Assembly: GCA_963803805.1 (NCBI GenBank)
Contig: CAWDOD010000003.1
Span: 288,001-352,000 of the forward strand
DNA: 64,000 bases
Source of the DNA: an uncultured cyanobacterium
GTDB lineage: Bacteria; Cyanobacteriota; Cyanobacteriia; Cyanobacteriales; CAWCAG01
Direction of reading: 5' to 3'
Part shown: piece after piece, positions 3,001 to 61,386 of the stretch
Layout of the letters: every line of letters begins with the position of its first letter
How positions within the stretch are numbered: position 1 is the first letter of the stretch
Program-made: the position numbers and the translations under genes
The notes under the pieces: model-generated
The model's input: only the letters and a program-made list of their open reading frames with translations
What the model was told of the DNA's origin: nothing
The model's database searches: none

Positions 3001-4946
3001 CAAAGTGGAGGACAAATCTTGACCAGTACCATTGGTGGAGGTAAAGCAGGGGAAGTTATTGTCAACGCCAGAGAAAGTGTCAATATCAACGGCAATGATC
3101 CTAACTTTGCCAATCGTCCCCAAGGACCTAAACCTCTAAGACAAGGAGTACAAGCTACTCCTTTCAACCTCTCTAAATTAGTTACCGAAACAGAACCCAA
3201 CAATAGTGCCGCAGAAGCTTTGTTTCTCAGTGACAATCTCTTTTCCGTAGACACTGTTAATAAGCCTAACCCTAATGTAGAACTTACTAACCGGATTCCC
3301 TATGTTTCTATTCAAGACAAAGGGGACAATAGCAATACCTCAGACTATTACGCCTTTGAGGTTAAAGCAGGAACGAGGGGGATTTTTGATATTGATAATG
3401 TCTTAGATAGCCAAGGTAAACCTATAGCAGATAGTTCTAATGTCAAAACTATAGAGCTTTTGCAAGTTCAAGATGGACAGTTGAAAGTAATAGGAGGAAA
3501 TGATGCCAGCCTGTCATTTCAAGGTGCAGGAGGAAGTAACCAAGCTTCTGACCCCTATTTTGACTTCACTTTCACTGAAAGTGGCACTGTCTACCTCAGA
3601 GTCACTAAGTCTGCCAACGCTCTTCCCAATCAAAGTAACTACACCCTCAACATCTCCCTAGAAACCCCCAATGTAACAGGTAGCAGCATTACCACTGGCG
3701 GGGCAGCTAGCGGTATCTTTGCCCAAACTAGTCCCGGTACAACAGGGGGTGCAGGGACAATCAACCTCAACACTCCCCAATTAAATGTTGCTGCTGGGGG
3801 CAGGGTTTCTGCCCTTACTCAAGGTAGAGGAGATGCCGGGGCAATCAAACTACAACCCATTGCCAACGGCAACGACTTCCAACTCAACCTTAGTGGTGGG
3901 CAGAAGTTTCTACCTCCACTTCTAGGGATGGTAGGGGAGGCAGTATTGCTTTCAATGCCCCTGGCAAGGTTACTATTCAAGGTGATGGTATCCTTTCTAC
4001 CCAAACTACTAGCACTGCCCCCAATGCAGGTAAGGCTGGAGATATTAGTGCTGTAGCTGGGGGCTTTTCCCTAACTAATGGTGCAAGGTTAACCTCTAGT
4101 ACCTCTGGTACTGCGGCTGCTGGAAATATTAATTTTCAGGTTCGCGATGACCTAACCATTGCTGGAGAGAACACCGGTTTATTCGCCAACACCTCCGCCA
4201 ACTCCTCTGGTAACTCCGGTAGCGTCTTTATCAACTCTGGAACTACAGCTATCCGAGATGGAGGGCAAGTTGCTGTTAATAGTCAAGGGGATGGTGTCGG
4301 AGGTAATATTAGCGTTTCCACCAATGATTTGACCCTCTTCAACCGAGGTACAATCAATGCAGCTACAGCCAAAACTAGCGGTGGTAACATTAGCCTCAAT
4401 GTTCCCGGACTCATCCTGATGCGCAACAACAGCCTCATCAGTGCGGCTGCGGGGGGTGCTGGCAGTGGGGGTAACATTACCCTTAACGTCGGTTTCATCG
4501 TTGCTATTCCCAAAGAAAACAGTGATGTAGTTGCCCGTGCTTCCCAAGGCAAAGGTGGTCAAATTATTATTAATGCCACTGGTGTTTATGGCTTTGTCGG
4601 GGATAGTCGCTTTTTGACTCCCTTTTCTGATTTAAACGCTTCTTCTGATGTGGTAGGTAATGAAGGAAGTGTAGCCATTGATGTAGATTTTGATGTTACC
4701 CAAGGGCTAAATAGCCTACCGGATGACAGGGTGGACACAGAGGTTAATGATAGTTGTGAGGCTATAGAAAAAGATGCTACTGTCGCCTTTTTTGATATTG
4801 GTAAGGGGGGAACATTAGCTAATCCCGATGAACCTTTAGATGCTGATAGTTGGGAATGGCTTAGTTTAGCAGAAGAGGAAGTTTCAGAAGAAAACAAGGA
4901 GGAATTTTTAGCTAGAGTTGAGGTTGAAAAACCTTGCGTTTTTTAG
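1..4946 (+). pseudogene. Filamentous haemagglutinin-like TpsA exoprotein, 5'-partial, split by a 1-nt frameshift at ~3898-3900
   Basis: Frame 1 is open from base 1 and has Gly/Ser/Asn-rich beta-helix repeats and GGFVEISGK / GTLLLDP motifs. After ...AGT GGT GGG (3892-3900), adding one G gives AEVSTSTSRDGRGGSIAFNAPG..., which reads without a stop into ORF 4329..4946 (typical cyanobacterial FHA C-terminus, ENSDVVARA..GGQI.I). Could be a sequencing error. Confidence 0.85.
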
Positions 4947-56515: not shown

Positions 56516-58357
56516 CTACTCCTCTTCCAATTCTGGCTTAGGTTTCTTCTCCAAGGGTAGTTCTTCAGGAACTTTAGGTTCTTTAGGTTCTTTAGGTTCT
56601 TGATTTTTCGCTTCTTCTTCTTCTTGGGCTTTACTCTGACTGGCTTTGTTCCCTAAATTTTCAAATTTTCTACGCCAATAGGGATTATTTGGGGGGCTAT
56701 TTGTAGCTGAAATCGCCTCATCCCAATCTCCCCGATTAAAAGCAGCTTCAGCTTGTTCAAATTGCGCTTCTGCGGCTGCCCAGTCGTTACTCCAAGTTTC
56801 AATAGTTCTTTGGGCTTCTCGATAGGCAGAACTATTGGCAGGTATGGAACTTAATTCCCTAATTGCCCCTGGTAAATCTCCTTGCTGATACTTTTCCCTC
56901 GCAGCCGCAACTATGGCATTGCCATTATCAACAGGTTGTGGTTTGGGTTTTGGTGTAGGAGATGGAGATGAAGATGGTTTTGGTGTAGGAGTTGGGGCAG
57001 CTACTGGTTCTACATCTACTTCACAATTAAGATAGTCACTATATACCCAACCACGGGGCTTGTTGATTTCTACCCATTTCCCTTCATTTTTACCAGAAAG
57101 AGAAACCTTAGTGCCATTTTTCACTTCTCCCACCTGTTCTCCATTAACATTAGGATTATCACGAACGTTCAAAGCTGGTTGGGCGTTTACTGTACACTTT
57201 TCGGTAGCATTGCCAATCAAGCTACCATCTTCTGGGAATAAGGAAACTATTTGTTCCCTGGCTGCAAAAGCAATACCAACCCCTGCCGCCACTAAGATAG
57301 CTAATAAGCTTCCTAAAAGTAGGGGGGCGCTATCGGGGCGGTTAGGGCCAATAGATGAAGGTATAGACGTTTGGGGAGAAGTTGGTTGTCTTGGTGGTGT
57401 AACTGCTACGGTTTGCTTTTGGGATAAGGGGTTTTGGGTGGAAGGTTTGTAGTGAGGAAGCTTGGGGAGAGAGTTATCTGAAACTTCTGGCTGATAAACA
57501 CGGGGAGAAGTTGGAGAAGTGGCAGGGGCTATTCCCGAATTAAGCTGTTCAAGTCTTTGCAATACTTCCGAGGCTGATTGATAGCGATCGCGGAAATGGT
57601 ACATAACCATACCATTTAAAATTGCTGCTAGTCCGGGGCTAACTTGGGCCCTTTGTTGCCAGAGAATTTCTCCTGTGTGGGGGTCATATTGAAATGCCAT
57701 CGGTTGAATTCCGGTGAGGGCTTGGATAGCAATCACCCCCAAGGCATAAATATCACTATTGGGACGAGGTTGTCCCCTAGCTTGTTCGCTAGGCATATAA
57801 CCAGGAGTTCCTACAGCAACGGTTTTAGTTACAGATTTGTCGATGAGTAAGGTTTGATTGCTGAGTTGCTTAACCGCCCCAAAATCCACTAAAACTATAT
57901 GGTTATCTGCTTTTCTTCGTAGTAGGTTATCTGGTTTAACGTCTCGGTGAATGACTCCTTGTTTATGGACAAAATCTAAGATAGGCAAAACATCTTGGAG
58001 GAGTGCTTTAACTTTTGTTTCGGTCCAAGGTTTACCGGGGATTAATTCATCAGAGAGATTATGACCATCAATAAAATCTTGGACTAAATAAAATTCTTGA
58101 TTTTCTTCAAAATAAGCTAATAATCTGGGAATTTGGGGATGATTGCCCACTTTTTCTAGACTTTCAGCTTCGGTATTAAATAAACGCCTCGCTGCGAGTA
58201 AAAAGTTAGCATCTCTAGTAGCGGGTTCGAGTTGTTTCACTACACAAACAGGATTGCCTGGCCGCCTCGTGTCTTGGGCCACATAGGTTTTACCAAAACC
58301 ACCTGCACCTAATACCTTAACAACTTGATATCGCCCGTCGAGTAACTTACCTATCAT
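56516..58357 (-). CDS. Ser/Thr protein kinase with TM and SH3b domain
   Basis: LGAGGFG, HRDVKPDN, DFG, GTPGY; TM; LNVR..PN....G.W.EI..P.GWV...YL. Confidence 0.93.
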   Translation of the reverse strand: MIGKLLDGRYQVVKVLGAGGFGKTYVAQDTRRPGNPVCVVKQLEPATRDANFLLAARRLFNTEAESLEKVGNHPQIPRLLAYFEENQEFYLVQDFIDGHNLSDELIPGKPWTETKVKALLQDVLPILDFVHKQGVIHRDVKPDNLLRRKADNHIVLVDFGAVKQLSNQTLLIDKSVTKTVAVGTPGYMPSEQARGQPRPNSDIYALGVIAIQALTGIQPMAFQYDPHTGEILWQQRAQVSPGLAAILNGMVMYHFRDRYQSASEVLQRLEQLNSGIAPATSPTSPRVYQPEVSDNSLPKLPHYKPSTQNPLSQKQTVAVTPPRQPTSPQTSIPSSIGPNRPDSAPLLLGSLLAILVAAGVGIAFAAREQIVSLFPEDGSLIGNATEKCTVNAQPALNVRDNPNVNGEQVGEVKNGTKVSLSGKNEGKWVEINKPRGWVYSDYLNCEVDVEPVAAPTPTPKPSSSPSPTPKPKPQPVDNGNAIVAAAREKYQQGDLPGAIRELSSIPANSSAYREAQRTIETWSNDWAAAEAQFEQAEAAFNRGDWDEAISATNSPPNNPYWRRKFENLGNKASQSKAQEEEEAKNQEPKEPKEPKVPEELPLEKKPKPELEEE

Positions 58358-58416: not shown

Positions 58417-59181
58417 TTATTTTTTTTCTTTAAAAGGGCTTTCTGCTTCGAGTTGTTTGATCTGTTTTTGTAGGGCAGTTAATTTTAAGCGTAGTTGAGA
58501 ATCTTCCTGGATATCAAGAAGGCGACAGAGGCGATCGCGCATTTTTTGGTGATGTCTTAAGGTTGTGTCCCAATCTCCTTGTAAACCGTAGCTACGACTA
58601 TTGATTTGTTCTTCTGGCAAGCAGAAAAATACGCCACCATCAGTACGTTGAATACTTCCTTCCCAAAGGTCAAAAACCCTAGCATTGCCTGTAATAGGGC
58701 TATTGCTATTTTGACTGCCATAGATATGAAGACTTAAAAATTCTGATTGTCCTGAGTTACCCATTTGGTGAATAAGTTCGCCATCAACTAATTTTACTTC
58801 TTGGGGTGCAAAGTCTATTCTTTTGGTGGTTCGCAGTATGCCATGTCTAAATTTATAAACGTAATGTTCTGCTATACCAAAACATTGTACTGCACCCCAT
58901 TGAGTGCAACCGTGATCATGAATGGCACTATAATCCCCTGGACTCCAGGACATGACCATGACTTCAAAATGACCTCCATCGTAGACTAGCTGGCGACCAT
59001 AGCTATCAGGAAGGGGATGATTAAAGTTTGCCCAAGGCATTAATTCTTGCGGTGCAATGTTGGCTTTTAAGATGCAGTTACGAACCCCTTCCGGAGTTAA
59101 AATCGAATGTTTTTTCAAACTATTAATTAGCGATTGCAAACTCTTGGGTAGCAATGGAGTTGCATTAGTAGCTTGAATCAT
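58417..59181 (-). CDS. Cysteine/thiol dioxygenase family cupin
   Basis: YGR, W.PG..SAIHDHG, IHQMGN, SLHIYG. Confidence 0.85.
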   Translation of the reverse strand: MIQATNATPLLPKSLQSLINSLKKHSILTPEGVRNCILKANIAPQELMPWANFNHPLPDSYGRQLVYDGGHFEVMVMSWSPGDYSAIHDHGCTQWGAVQCFGIAEHYVYKFRHGILRTTKRIDFAPQEVKLVDGELIHQMGNSGQSEFLSLHIYGSQNSNSPITGNARVFDLWEGSIQRTDGGVFFCLPEEQINSRSYGLQGDWDTTLRHHQKMRDRLCRLLDIQEDSQLRLKLTALQKQIKQLEAESPFKEKK

Positions 59182-59506
59182 TTTTCTAATCCTTTAACTA
59201 ATTTATTTCTAAGGTAGAAACTAATACTTAAAGAAATCTGATAAATGTTCATTTTAGCCTTAGAATAGTTTGAGCAAATTCTTAGGTAATCCTCATCTAA
59301 AGTATAAATAGTGAACCTATGCTAACTATGATAATTTTAGTAATTTACATATGATATAGATGTAAAACGACATAGATATGAAGGCTTAGAGGCCAGTGCT
59401 TATGAAAGCTGGACTAATTTAGTCAGCGCTGGGGGAAATATGCTTCAGAAGTTGGAGAGAAACATAAAATTAATTTTGCTTAAGTACTTACCTATGGTTA
59501 TCTTGC

Positions 59507-59535
59507 TTGACGAAAAGAAGACCTTTTGTTAAAGT
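59507..59535 (+). promoter_or_regulatory. Sigma70-type promoter of the DAHP synthase leader
   Basis: TTGACG (59507-12), 17-bp spacer, TAAAGT (59530-35), extended -10 TG. Confidence 0.75.
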
Positions 59536-59562
59536 AAGCAAAGCTATTAGATATCGTCAATA

Positions 59563-59619
59563 ATGTTCTCCAGTTTCCAGGATTTTTACTTTTGGTTTAA
59601 ATCGGTTCGCCGCGAGTGA
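59563..59619 (+). CDS. Aromatic-rich leader peptide 1 (MFSSFQDFYFWFKSVRRE)
   Basis: 18 codons with 5 Phe, 1 Tyr, 1 Trp; its 3' end can pair with the 5' arm of terminator 1. Confidence 0.8.
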   Translation: MFSSFQDFYFWFKSVRRE

Positions 59620-59647
59620 ATCTAGCTTTGTCTGGAATCTCCCGGTG

Positions 59648-59677
59648 GACCGCAGAATTAAAACTGCGGTCTTTTTT
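59648..59677 (+). terminator. Intrinsic terminator 1 (attenuator)
   Basis: GACCGCAG-8 nt-CTGCGGTC-T6. Confidence 0.88.
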
Positions 59678-59713
59678 ATTGCTCGAATTTTCCCAACTCC
59701 GTTCCAAAACACC

Positions 59714-59770
59714 ATGAGTTTCTACTTTTATTACTTTCACTTTTTTTGGCCTAGACAAAGTTCCGGGTAG
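59714..59770 (+). CDS. Aromatic-rich leader peptide 2 (MSFYFYYFHFFWPRQSSG)
   Basis: 18 codons; 9 of 10 consecutive residues are Phe/Tyr/Trp; its 3' end can pair with the 5' arm of terminator 2. Confidence 0.85.
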   Translation: MSFYFYYFHFFWPRQSSG

Positions 59771-59794
59771 ATAGCCTCATGCCGTTGTTTTATC

Positions 59795-59828
59795 AAGCCT
59801 GGAACTGAATCAAGTTCCGGGCTTTTTT
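59795..59828 (+). terminator. Intrinsic terminator 2 (attenuator)
   Basis: AAGCCTGGAACT-6 nt-AGTTCCGGGCTT, running into a T6 tract 38 bp before the ATG. Confidence 0.88.
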
Positions 59829-59866
59829 ATTGTCCTACTACTATAAATTAAAGGAATCATTGCTTC

Positions 59867-60724
59867 ATGTTAGGTGCTAAACTCGCCCTCAAATCTCTAT
59901 CTCAACCCACAAGTCTGATCAACATATCCGATCAAGTTACCATCGGTGGTTCAGAAATTGTTATTATTGGTGGCCCCTGTGCGGTAGAAAATTTAGAGCA
60001 AATGGAAACTGTTGCAGAAAAACTTGCAGCAACTTCAGTACAAGCTTTGCGGGGTGGAGTCTATAAACCTCGCACCTCTCCCTACTCTTTTCAAGGATTA
60101 GGTAAAGAAGGATTAGATATTTTTACTACTATTAAGAATCGTTGGCATATACCTGTTGTTTCAGAAGTTATGGCTATTAGTCAAATTGAAGAGATGACTG
60201 CTTGTATCGATATGTTCCAAGTTGGTAGTCGTAATATGCAAAACTTTGATTTGTTGAAAGCTTTAGGACAAGCAGGGAAGCCAGTATTACTTAAACGAGG
60301 TTTGGCTGCAACCCTAGAAGAATTTATTTTCGCCGCAGAATATATTTTAAGTCACGGTAACTCCCAAGTTGTTTTTTGCGAAAGGGGTATCCGTAGCTTT
60401 GATAATTACACTCGTAATGTTTTAGATTTGGGTACGGTAGCAGCTTTAAAACAGTTAACTCACTTACCTGTAATTGTTGATCCTTCCCACGCCGCCGGGA
60501 GAAGAGAGTTAATTGCGCCTTTGGCTAAAGCGGCGATCGCCTGTGGTGCTGATGGTTTGATTATCGAATGTCACCCCACCCCCAAAGAGTCTATTTCTGA
60601 TGCTAGTCAAGCTCTTTCTTTAGAAGAAATGGTAAGTTTAGTTGCTGATCTCAAACCTATTGCTAAAGCAGTAGAACGCAATATAGCAACTTCATCACCT
60701 AGTCGTGAACTTTCTTTAGTTTAG
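59867..60724 (+). CDS. aroF: DAHP synthase, type I-beta, short form
   Basis: GPCAVE, GGVYKPRTSPYSFQG, GSRNMQN, LKRG, CERGI, DPSH, IECH. Confidence 0.93.
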   Translation: MLGAKLALKSLSQPTSLINISDQVTIGGSEIVIIGGPCAVENLEQMETVAEKLAATSVQALRGGVYKPRTSPYSFQGLGKEGLDIFTTIKNRWHIPVVSEVMAISQIEEMTACIDMFQVGSRNMQNFDLLKALGQAGKPVLLKRGLAATLEEFIFAAEYILSHGNSQVVFCERGIRSFDNYTRNVLDLGTVAALKQLTHLPVIVDPSHAAGRRELIAPLAKAAIACGADGLIIECHPTPKESISDASQALSLEEMVSLVADLKPIAKAVERNIATSSPSRELSLV

Positions 60725-60835: not shown

Positions 60836-61267
60836 CTAATCCAAATAAGCAAAAAAGCCTTCAGGAACAAGTCGCAATTCCCTACAACTAAACTTATTTA
60901 TATCTACCCAAAGAGCCTTTTTCTTTTTCTTCCCTTCCTGAAAAATCATTTCTGTTAACTCATAGAACTTATTATCTTTAAAATCGCACTGATAAAGTTG
61001 AATGATTTCATGACCAGTCTCTCCATCGCAAGTAAAAATATTTTCCAAACAACTAAGATATTTAATATTTGTTAATTCTGCTTGTATTTCTTCTTGAAAC
61101 TCTCTTTGTAAAGCTTCTAAACTAGTTTCACCAAAATCTACGCCACCTCCCAAAGCACGGTAAAACATATCTTTTTTAAAAGAGTCATGTCCCTCAGAAA
61201 CAAAGATGCGATCGCCCTCACGAATCAAACCCAAAGCAATAACCCGTATTTTCTTTTTCTTGGTCAT
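60836..61267 (-). CDS. NUDIX hydrolase
   Basis: GGGVDFGETSLEALQREFQEE Nudix box; start at MTKKKK. Confidence 0.9.
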   Translation of the reverse strand: MTKKKKIRVIALGLIREGDRIFVSEGHDSFKKDMFYRALGGGVDFGETSLEALQREFQEEIQAELTNIKYLSCLENIFTCDGETGHEIIQLYQCDFKDNKFYELTEMIFQEGKKKKKALWVDINKFSCRELRLVPEGFFAYLD

Positions 61268-61300
61268 CTCCAAATATCCATAACAAAGTAGATACAACTT

Positions 61301-61386
61301 TATAGCAATTCTCGTGCTTGTTAGGTACAAAAAACCTCGGTTTGGGGAACACAGAAATGTACCTCATGAATCTGAGAAACGCTATA
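61301..61386. repeat. Small MITE-like palindrome (TATAGC...AGGTACA / TGTACCT...GCTATA)
   Basis: Imperfect ~29-bp terminal inverted repeats with TATA ends. Confidence 0.7.

Follow-up and report, generated by a model that had tools for sequence, protein, structure and literature searches.

Most known cases of leader-peptide attenuation, which needs tight coupling of translation to transcription, come from Proteobacteria and Actinobacteria, and control of aromatic amino-acid synthesis in cyanobacteria is usually ascribed to enzyme feedback. The Escherichia coli leader-peptide attenuators trpL-trpE and pheL-pheA are summarised in a passage of the review PMC11802643, which also describes E. coli DAHP synthase as controlled by the repressors TyrR and TrpR. 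Here we analysed a 64,000-nucleotide (nt) stretch of DNA from an uncultured cyanobacterium (the window), in which positions 59507-59866 of the plus strand, directly before the gene of a short DAHP synthase (aroF), probably form two ribosome-mediated leader-peptide transcription attenuators in series. Like trpL and pheL, each of the two modules has a leader open reading frame (ORF) with codons for the end products of the pathway, a terminator before the structural gene and an antiterminator predicted to depend on the position of the ribosome. Unlike them, the locus belongs to the phylum Cyanobacteriota, carries two complete modules in series and has DAHP synthase as its target; each leader combines codons for Phe, Tyr and Trp and does not rely on one amino acid, no Rfam leader family is matched, and no 1:2 pause hairpin is supported.

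The closest described systems with respect to the target gene are single modules. In Corynebacterium glutamicum, the aroR-aroF leader encodes an aromatic peptide (Phe-Tyr-Phe) 5' of a DAHP synthase gene, and read-through is reported to rise under Phe limitation, as given in part of the same review (PMC11802643). Compared by that description only, the system of this actinobacterium is a single module whose aromatic run is far shorter, and Trp is not mentioned in the account. The attenuator was reportedly described by Neshat et al. in 2014. The uORFC-13-1 motif of Acholeplasma, a prediction from comparative genomics, consists of a predicted upstream ORF (uORF) with Phe codons beside an intrinsic terminator 5' of aroF (Brewer et al. 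2021, PMC8632094); it has one module, its U run codes for at least one Phe, it comes from one Mollicutes genus, and the passage of the paper on this motif describes no antiterminator. With respect to the tandem form, two uORF-based attenuators lie in tandem in the Salmonella mgtCBR leader, according to a passage of Lee and Groisman 2012 (PMC3641672). Unlike in mgtCBR, one amino-acid pool would be read by both ORFs at the cyanobacterial locus, each of which is followed by a canonical intrinsic terminator of its own. The two mgtCBR ORFs sense different signals, and their target is a virulence/Mg2+ operon. Tandem riboswitches and T-boxes are complete terminator-based switches in series for the same ligand, for which a more digital response has been proposed; they sense by an RNA aptamer or by tRNA binding, whereas here the sensor would be the translating ribosome.

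The original prediction, made from the window sequence alone, knew of no characterised leader-peptide attenuator of this kind in cyanobacteria, and the literature bore this out: neither a cyanobacterial leader-peptide attenuator nor these peptide motifs were found in full texts (subscription-only papers and supplementary tables lay outside this scope). A preprint on cyanobacterial termination (PMC12642595) leaves attenuation, aroF and leader peptides unmentioned, and only passing mentions of transcription-translation coupling in cyanobacteria were found in the literature. The kind of mechanism is already known; what appears to be new is its tandem form and its occurrence in Cyanobacteriota, for which no same-signal, two-stage leader-peptide attenuator seems to have been described before.

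According to the original prediction, one promoter-like site is followed by two full modules and then by aroF, and we found every one of these elements in its predicted place (Table 1). The order at the locus is promoter-like site, uORF1, terminator 1, uORF2, terminator 2 and aroF; the terminator hairpins start 27 nt (module 1) and 24 nt (module 2) past the uORF stop codons, and the aroF ATG lies 36 nt past the second U-tract, with an AAGGA motif 11-15 nt before it. A transcription start downstream of terminator 2 had been named as evidence that would speak against attenuation. The sequence scan from 59400 to the aroF start revealed no other promoter-like site on the plus strand, neither between the modules nor before aroF. 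Neither terminator can be attributed to a flanking gene, because the gene on the upstream side (58417-59181) runs divergently and the one on the downstream side (60836-61330), beyond aroF, is convergent.

Table 1. Features of the double leader and of aroF in the window, with the pairing of each helix in the 78-sequence alignments
Feature	Position	Strand	Details	Basis	Cells paired	Compensatory changes
Promoter-like site	59507..59535	+	TTGACG-17-TAAAGT, extended -10 TG	Sequence motif; putative function		
uORF1 (leader peptide 1)	59563..59619	+	MFSSFQDFYFWFKSVRRE, stop TGA 59617-59619	ORF listing		
Antiterminator 1, 5' strand (region 2)	59603..59616	+	Over the last five uORF1 codons	Predicted fold		
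Inner hairpin enclosed by antiterminator 1	59621..59636	+		Predicted fold		
Antiterminator 1, 3' strand (region 3)	59639..59652	+	59647-59652 common with terminator 1 5' arm	Predicted fold		
Antiterminator 1 plus inner hairpin					94.3%	15 cells in 6 pairs
Intrinsic terminator 1	59647..59678	+	9-bp stem 59647-59655/59664-59672, 8-nt loop, U6 59673-59678	Predicted fold	99%	4 cells in 2 pairs
uORF2 (leader peptide 2)	59714..59770	+	MSFYFYYFHFFWPRQSSG, stop TAG 59768-59770	ORF listing		
Antiterminator 2, 5' strand (region 2)	59759..59768	+	Last uORF2 codons and first stop-codon base	Predicted fold		
Antiterminator 2					93.1%	2 cells in 2 pairs
Intrinsic terminator 2	59795..59830	+	12-bp stem 59795-59806/59813-59824, 6-nt loop, U6 59825-59830	Predicted fold	96%	20 cells in 4 pairs; reached by 0/500 shuffles
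aroF	59867..60724	+	285-aa type I-beta DAHP synthase	Pfam PF00793, 254 bits; TIGR01361		

Both uORFs are rich in aromatic codons and are predicted to be translated as leader peptides. In uORF1, 7 of 18 codons are aromatic (5 Phe, 1 Tyr and 1 Trp, at positions 2, 5 and 8-12; aromatic run 59584-59598), and in uORF2, 9 of 18 (5 Phe, 3 Tyr and 1 Trp, at positions 3-8 and 10-12; aromatic run 59720-59749). We considered a chance arrangement with no function. Aromatic-rich small ORFs (sORFs) are not rare in this AT-rich genome (5.3 Mb in 11 contigs, 39.8% GC), which gave 58 matches, and a crude terminator scan taken alone stayed within chance (2 sites versus 1.5 ± 1.3 in shuffles). However, both modules were present at all 77 loci compared below, across several orders, their helices covary, and the element is linked solely to one gene. 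These comparative data refute the chance arrangement, to which we assign next to no probability, and conservation in the relatives is the decisive argument against it. In the window genome itself, a scan of all 5.3 Mb for an sORF, a perfect-stem terminator and a downstream gene returned 73 configurations, and only these two had at least 5 of 8 aromatic codons. Eleven other aromatic sORF candidates of the genome were inspected; none had the terminator/antiterminator layout or a relevant gene downstream, and most lay within coding regions. The genome also holds, outside the window, a Thr-rich 8-codon sORF (MHTTTIHT, G000:C3:469430-469456, minus strand) with a terminator-like hairpin 3 nt past it and a gene for a patatin-like phospholipase 91 nt downstream; it resembles a Thr leader, but the downstream gene does not fit, and we judged this configuration to be due to chance.

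To compare the leader among relatives, we took the best 80 of 450 confirmed relatives of the short enzyme (70-76% identity) and left out three loci with less than 400 nt of upstream DNA. The 77 loci kept came from Nostoc, Calothrix, Tolypothrix, Fischerella, Scytonema, Oscillatoria, Microcoleus, Coleofasciculus, Floridaenema, Argonema, Spirulina and others. The results showed both modules in 77/77 loci, 70 of them recognised by regular expression and 7 by eye (4 with a GTG-start uORF2 and 3 with a YLYFW-variant uORF1). The aromatic uORFs expected by the original prediction upstream of short aroF orthologues are thus conserved, and each retains its alternative strand and U-tailed terminator. 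The promoter-like site was likewise frequent: a TTGAC[AG] -35 with a -10 (at least 9/12 matches) occurred 5' of uORF1 in 63/76 loci, and in 55 of these 63 the -10 ended 43-51 nt before the uORF1 ATG, whereas a control region reached the same promoter score in 22/75 relatives. The spacing from the uORF1 stop to the uORF2 stop was 142-380 nt (median 146), so short that most loci have no room for a second promoter. At two Komarekiella loci (L001 and L019), the spacer between terminator 2 and aroF measured about 200-260 nt, enlarged by runs of short CCCCAAT/CCCCAGT-like repeats. One locus (L043, JBLNEP010000075.1) lay on a metagenome-assembled contig labelled 'Actinomycetota bacterium'; its short aroF is typically cyanobacterial (71% identity), both modules are present, and the contig is probably mis-binned.

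The sequence variation of the uORFs suggests that their frames are read as codons. The consensus in relatives was M....SYFYFWF[RK][AV]VHRE for uORF1 and MTYFSSWFYGFYFWPRxSSG for uORF2. Phe, Tyr and Trp were each encoded at least once in all 78 uORF1 and all 78 uORF2 sequences, with a median aromatic content of 6 of the last 18 codons (uORF1) and 9 of the last 20 (uORF2). At aromatic positions, replacements were nearly always aromatic; examples from the 78 sequences are F74/Y4, F67/Y7/W3/V1 and Y75/F2/W1. Within the aromatic block of uORF2, variation at codon position 3 (12.7%) was about fourfold that at positions 1 and 2 (3.4% and 3.2%), and the non-aromatic codons 2-6 of uORF1 varied by 23-37%. 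Insertions and deletions observed within the uORFs were multiples of 3. An ATG stood 17-21 codons ahead of the uORF1 stop in 76/77 loci and 19-22 codons ahead of the uORF2 stop in 70/77, and a Shine-Dalgarno (SD)-like motif preceded uORF2 in 61/75 relatives and aroF in 65/75.

The predicted terminators were considerably more stable than shuffled sequences. Terminator 1 folded at -15.6 kcal/mol (z -5.2) and terminator 2 at -20.3 kcal/mol (z -6.0), and for either hairpin 0/200 shuffles folded as well. Each is opposed by an alternative helix. Antiterminator 1 pairs 59603-59616 with 59639-59652 (-24.2 kcal/mol) and overlaps terminator 1 by 6 nt. Antiterminator 2 pairs 59759-59768 with 59797-59806 (-18.4 kcal/mol); its 3' strand lies within the 5' arm of terminator 2, of which it takes up 10/12 nt, and its 5' strand is a near copy of the terminator 2 3' arm.

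The stem covariation that the original prediction proposed to look for was detected in the terminators and in the antiterminators (Table 1). Pairing was tallied in the 78-sequence alignments unless stated otherwise, and controls in which the 3' partner was slid by 1-3 columns fell to 13-61% for every helix. The antiterminator 1 helix by itself was paired in 96.7% of cells (76 distinct sequences) and was predicted by RNAalifold unguided; the inner hairpin, GUUUCC/GGAAAC in relatives, was paired in 89.9%, with three pairs changing on both sides. In terminator 1, an A-U to G-C change was compensated in 3 sequences, the window among them. The U-tracts were kept in relatives, and mean column identity was 72% for module 1 and 69% for module 2. 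Because the relatives in these alignments are close, we also aligned a more diverse sequence set to covariance models; these hold the terminators only (with the inner hairpin in module 1), so the antiterminators were not fitted in this alignment. Antiterminator 1 was paired in 92.5% of cells among 34 diverse sequences, with 23 compensatory cells in 4 pairs and slid controls of at most 55%, and its covariation was 0.234 versus 0.114 in shuffles, a value reached by 0/500 shuffles. Its compensated pairs included GUUCGCCCGGAG/CUCCGGGCGAAC and CACCUGGAG/CUCCAGGUG versus the consensus CACCGGG/CCCGGUG. Antiterminator 2 was paired in 91.2% of cells in the diverse sequences, with 7 compensatory cells in 4 pairs, and in L028 three strands changed together (CCGAG/CUCGG/CCGAG), as they did in L039, L124 and L125.

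To determine the distribution of the element, we searched 151 genomes sampled evenly from the phylum, the window genome included, with covariance models of module 2 (R1) and module 1 (R2). R1 gave 20 strong matches (53-150 bits), one per genome, each directly 5' of a short-aroF orthologue; R2 gave strong matches in 21 genomes, namely 20 with a short aroF and one decayed relic (G050). In this sample, no strong match of either model fell outside the class to which the window belongs, and nine DAHP synthase loci examined from non-photosynthetic lineages showed no aromatic uORF upstream. Short-aroF orthologues (at least 66% identity and at least 393 bits) were found in 21/151 genomes; the remaining matches reached at most 51% and 291 bits, and the lower-scoring DAHP synthase matches that we inspected had an N-terminal extension of 65-156 aa. 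Among the 21 orthologue loci, 19 had both modules, one had module 1 only (L126, genome G038), 70 nt before an intact short aroF, and one had module 2 only (L123, genome G089), which has a promoter-like site of its own and likewise directly precedes an intact short aroF. These single-module loci indicate that each module can stand alone. In nine long-paralog loci and at the long paralog of the window genome, neither model matched at E ≤ 1, and no aromatic uORF was found within 800 nt upstream at the nine long-paralog loci. The element is therefore single-copy, bound to short aroF, patchily distributed and sometimes lost. In many of the loci L106-L126, R1 and R2 also cross-matched the other module weakly and over its full length (15-29 bits), a hint that the two modules may be old duplicates. 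Further weak model matches of 27-31 bits (G000:C2:1330473-1330594, G027, G147 and G108) were discarded, with no aroF near the three inspected (L103-L105). One locus with both modules intact (L112, G059:C1:3292646-3293473) had a short-aroF match with a single in-frame TGA, explicable as a recent pseudogene or as an error in sequencing.

In the relic of G050 (L136, G050:C49:70500-74700, minus strand, about 3305-3760), the antiterminator and a promoter-like site remain, and uORF1 (MFSSRSYFYFWFRVVHWE) is intact. Through a deletion, terminator 1 now runs from its 5' arm straight into the interior of a short-aroF remnant (94-aa frame), which ends where a convergent histidine-kinase-like gene cuts it off, and module 2 is gone; thus, the leader decays together with its gene. 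This bears on the possibility that the short leader transcripts (about 135 and 290 nt), the peptides or both act in trans as small RNAs or small proteins, with cis control of aroF being secondary. The RNA and the peptide of the Sinorhizobium trp attenuator are both reported to act in trans, and at our locus the very high nucleotide conservation and the conserved peptide tails VHRE and WPRxSSG would suit such a role. However, these tails are exactly the antiterminator strands and covary with their partners instead of preserving the peptide, and the element never occurs apart from short aroF and is lost as that gene decays. A function in trans would, moreover, supplement attenuation in cis and not replace it, and we consider its being primary improbable.

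Several observations weigh against two leader-peptide attenuators in series. The relatives are not independent, and the counts therefore overstate the support; much of the sequence is also conserved to such a degree that many pairs show no variation, and these are therefore uninformative on structure. Antiterminator 1 overlaps terminator 1 by 6 nt only. A 1:2 pause or anti-antiterminator hairpin, which trp has but not every attenuator does, found no support: in module 2, RNAalifold predicted 5 pairs (88.8% paired) with covariation no higher than in the slid controls, and in module 1 it predicted none. The usual-place ATG of uORF1 is missing in L056, and that of uORF2 in 7/77 loci (4 with GTG, 2 with an in-frame Val codon, and L011 with no evident start). 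Furthermore, an SD-like motif was found before uORF1 in 0/75 relatives and before neither uORF in the window. Together with the near invariance of the uORF1 aromatic block in nucleotides, this last point could suggest that a factor (an RNA-binding protein or uncharged tRNA) binds the U/A-rich tract of aromatic codons and antiterminates, the reading frames being incidental. We regard such a factor as quite unlikely, since start, stop and frame are preserved, with the ATG counts given above, the antiterminator strand in every case adjoins or includes part of the stop codon, and the observed changes are aromatic-for-aromatic or synonymous. No T-box or other Rfam family matched either: a cmscan of 59200-60000 with permissive filters gave best scores of 14-25 bits (E about 1-7) versus gathering thresholds of 45-229, and matched no family (Trp_leader, Phe_leader or T-box). 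A match to the Rfam 'trpB motif' (18.8 bits versus a gathering threshold of 59) spanned terminator 2 only and was dismissed.

The equilibrium folds also speak against attenuation, as those of the full length retain both terminators. With the terminators winning at equilibrium, any switch has to operate kinetically, like that of the classical attenuators. The constant presence of the hairpins in these folds, and the fact that termination by cyanobacterial RNA polymerase is a prediction, would also fit control of translation or mRNA stability, in which the hairpins serve as processing or stability elements and the uORFs set ribosome loading on aroF. Both hairpins, however, are G+C-rich and directly followed by U6, the canonical form of intrinsic terminators, the U-tracts are conserved, and the SD-like AAGGA and the ATG of aroF lie outside both hairpins, so that control of translation or stability has little probability in our judgement.

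The results on the protein indicate that the controlled gene encodes a DAHP synthase, as the original prediction had assigned it. The short enzyme scored 348.7 bits with TIGR01361 (cut-off 267.75), whereas KDO8P synthase models gave 129-134 bits, under their cut-offs of 242-314, and that identity was rejected. It matched NF006421 only at profile positions 70-337 of 338 and aligned to residues 78-333 of 1rzm_A and to the whole 276-aa chain 1vs1_A (PDB). By these alignments, the short enzyme is the catalytic barrel only, with neither an N-terminal ferredoxin-like nor a chorismate-mutase domain. One other family member was found in the genome, a 352-aa paralog that is 47% identical to the short enzyme and matches 1rzm_A residues 1-331 and NF009933 over its full length. 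In the DAHP synthase of Thermotoga, the N-terminal domain carries the feedback inhibition by Phe and Tyr. The short isoenzyme lacks this domain and is therefore probably feedback-insensitive, an analogy that would leave it governed by its synthesis and not by allostery, as a starvation-induced booster of entry into the shikimate pathway.

The two attenuators in series that the original prediction proposed were supported by the conservation, the covariation, the exclusive tie to short aroF and the aromatic-for-aromatic substitutions, and they would work as follows. A single transcript starting near 59542 would carry both attenuators. When the aromatic tRNAs are charged, the ribosome would reach the stop codon and mask 59603-59616 in module 1 or 59759-59768 in module 2; at the uORF1 stop it is expected to do so because the 5' strand of antiterminator 1 spans the last five codons. 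With this strand masked, the terminator hairpin would form, and transcription would end at about 59678 or 59830. If one of the aromatic aminoacyl-tRNAs runs short, the ribosome would stall in the aromatic run and leave the 5' strand of the antiterminator free to capture the 5' arm of the terminator before its 3' arm is made; no terminator would then form, and the polymerase would read on. Transcription of aroF would follow only once both terminators had been passed. Read-through would thus be the product of two probabilities, which should keep basal expression very low and make the response steeper than with a single module.

The original prediction had described the pair as an AND gate or as a means of sharpening the response. 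Because each leader carries codons for all three aromatic amino acids (78/78), both stages would read the same pooled signal, and the idea of modules specialised for different amino acids was rejected. An AND gate of different signals accordingly finds no support, and a sharpened response with lower leak is the better wording. In its widest form, the proposal is that the locus represents the first ribosome-mediated attenuation of Cyanobacteriota, an ancient two-stage switch found in several orders that gates a feedback-insensitive booster and gives a near-digital response to pooled aromatic aminoacyl-tRNAs; the chances that this whole picture holds seem to us evenly balanced.

If the proposed mechanism is correct, it would add a missing regulatory layer to the cyanobacterial shikimate pathway and explain how an isoenzyme without an allosteric domain stays in check. 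It would also imply that the lead ribosome in cyanobacteria trails the polymerase so closely that it can determine, within about 60 nt, whether transcription terminates, and the locus would offer a simple natural read-out of transcription-translation coupling in these bacteria. Cyanobacterial RNA polymerase is slow and Si3-bearing, and, to our knowledge, cyanobacteria lack Rho. In addition, the locus would be a naturally occurring example of two ribosome sensors that read the same signal in series, with the single-module variants of G038 and G089 as controls, and it would supply the metabolic engineering of cyanobacteria with a compact part responsive to aromatic amino acids.

Two genes on the minus strand, upstream of the leader and divergent from it, have no evident link to aroF. 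The nearer one (58417-59181) encodes a 254-aa protein with a weak match to cysteine-dioxygenase-type cupins (PF05995, E 6e-7). Beyond it, a gene at 56516-58357 encodes a 613-aa protein whose N-terminus resembles a Ser/Thr protein kinase by eye, with an HRDVKPDN motif.

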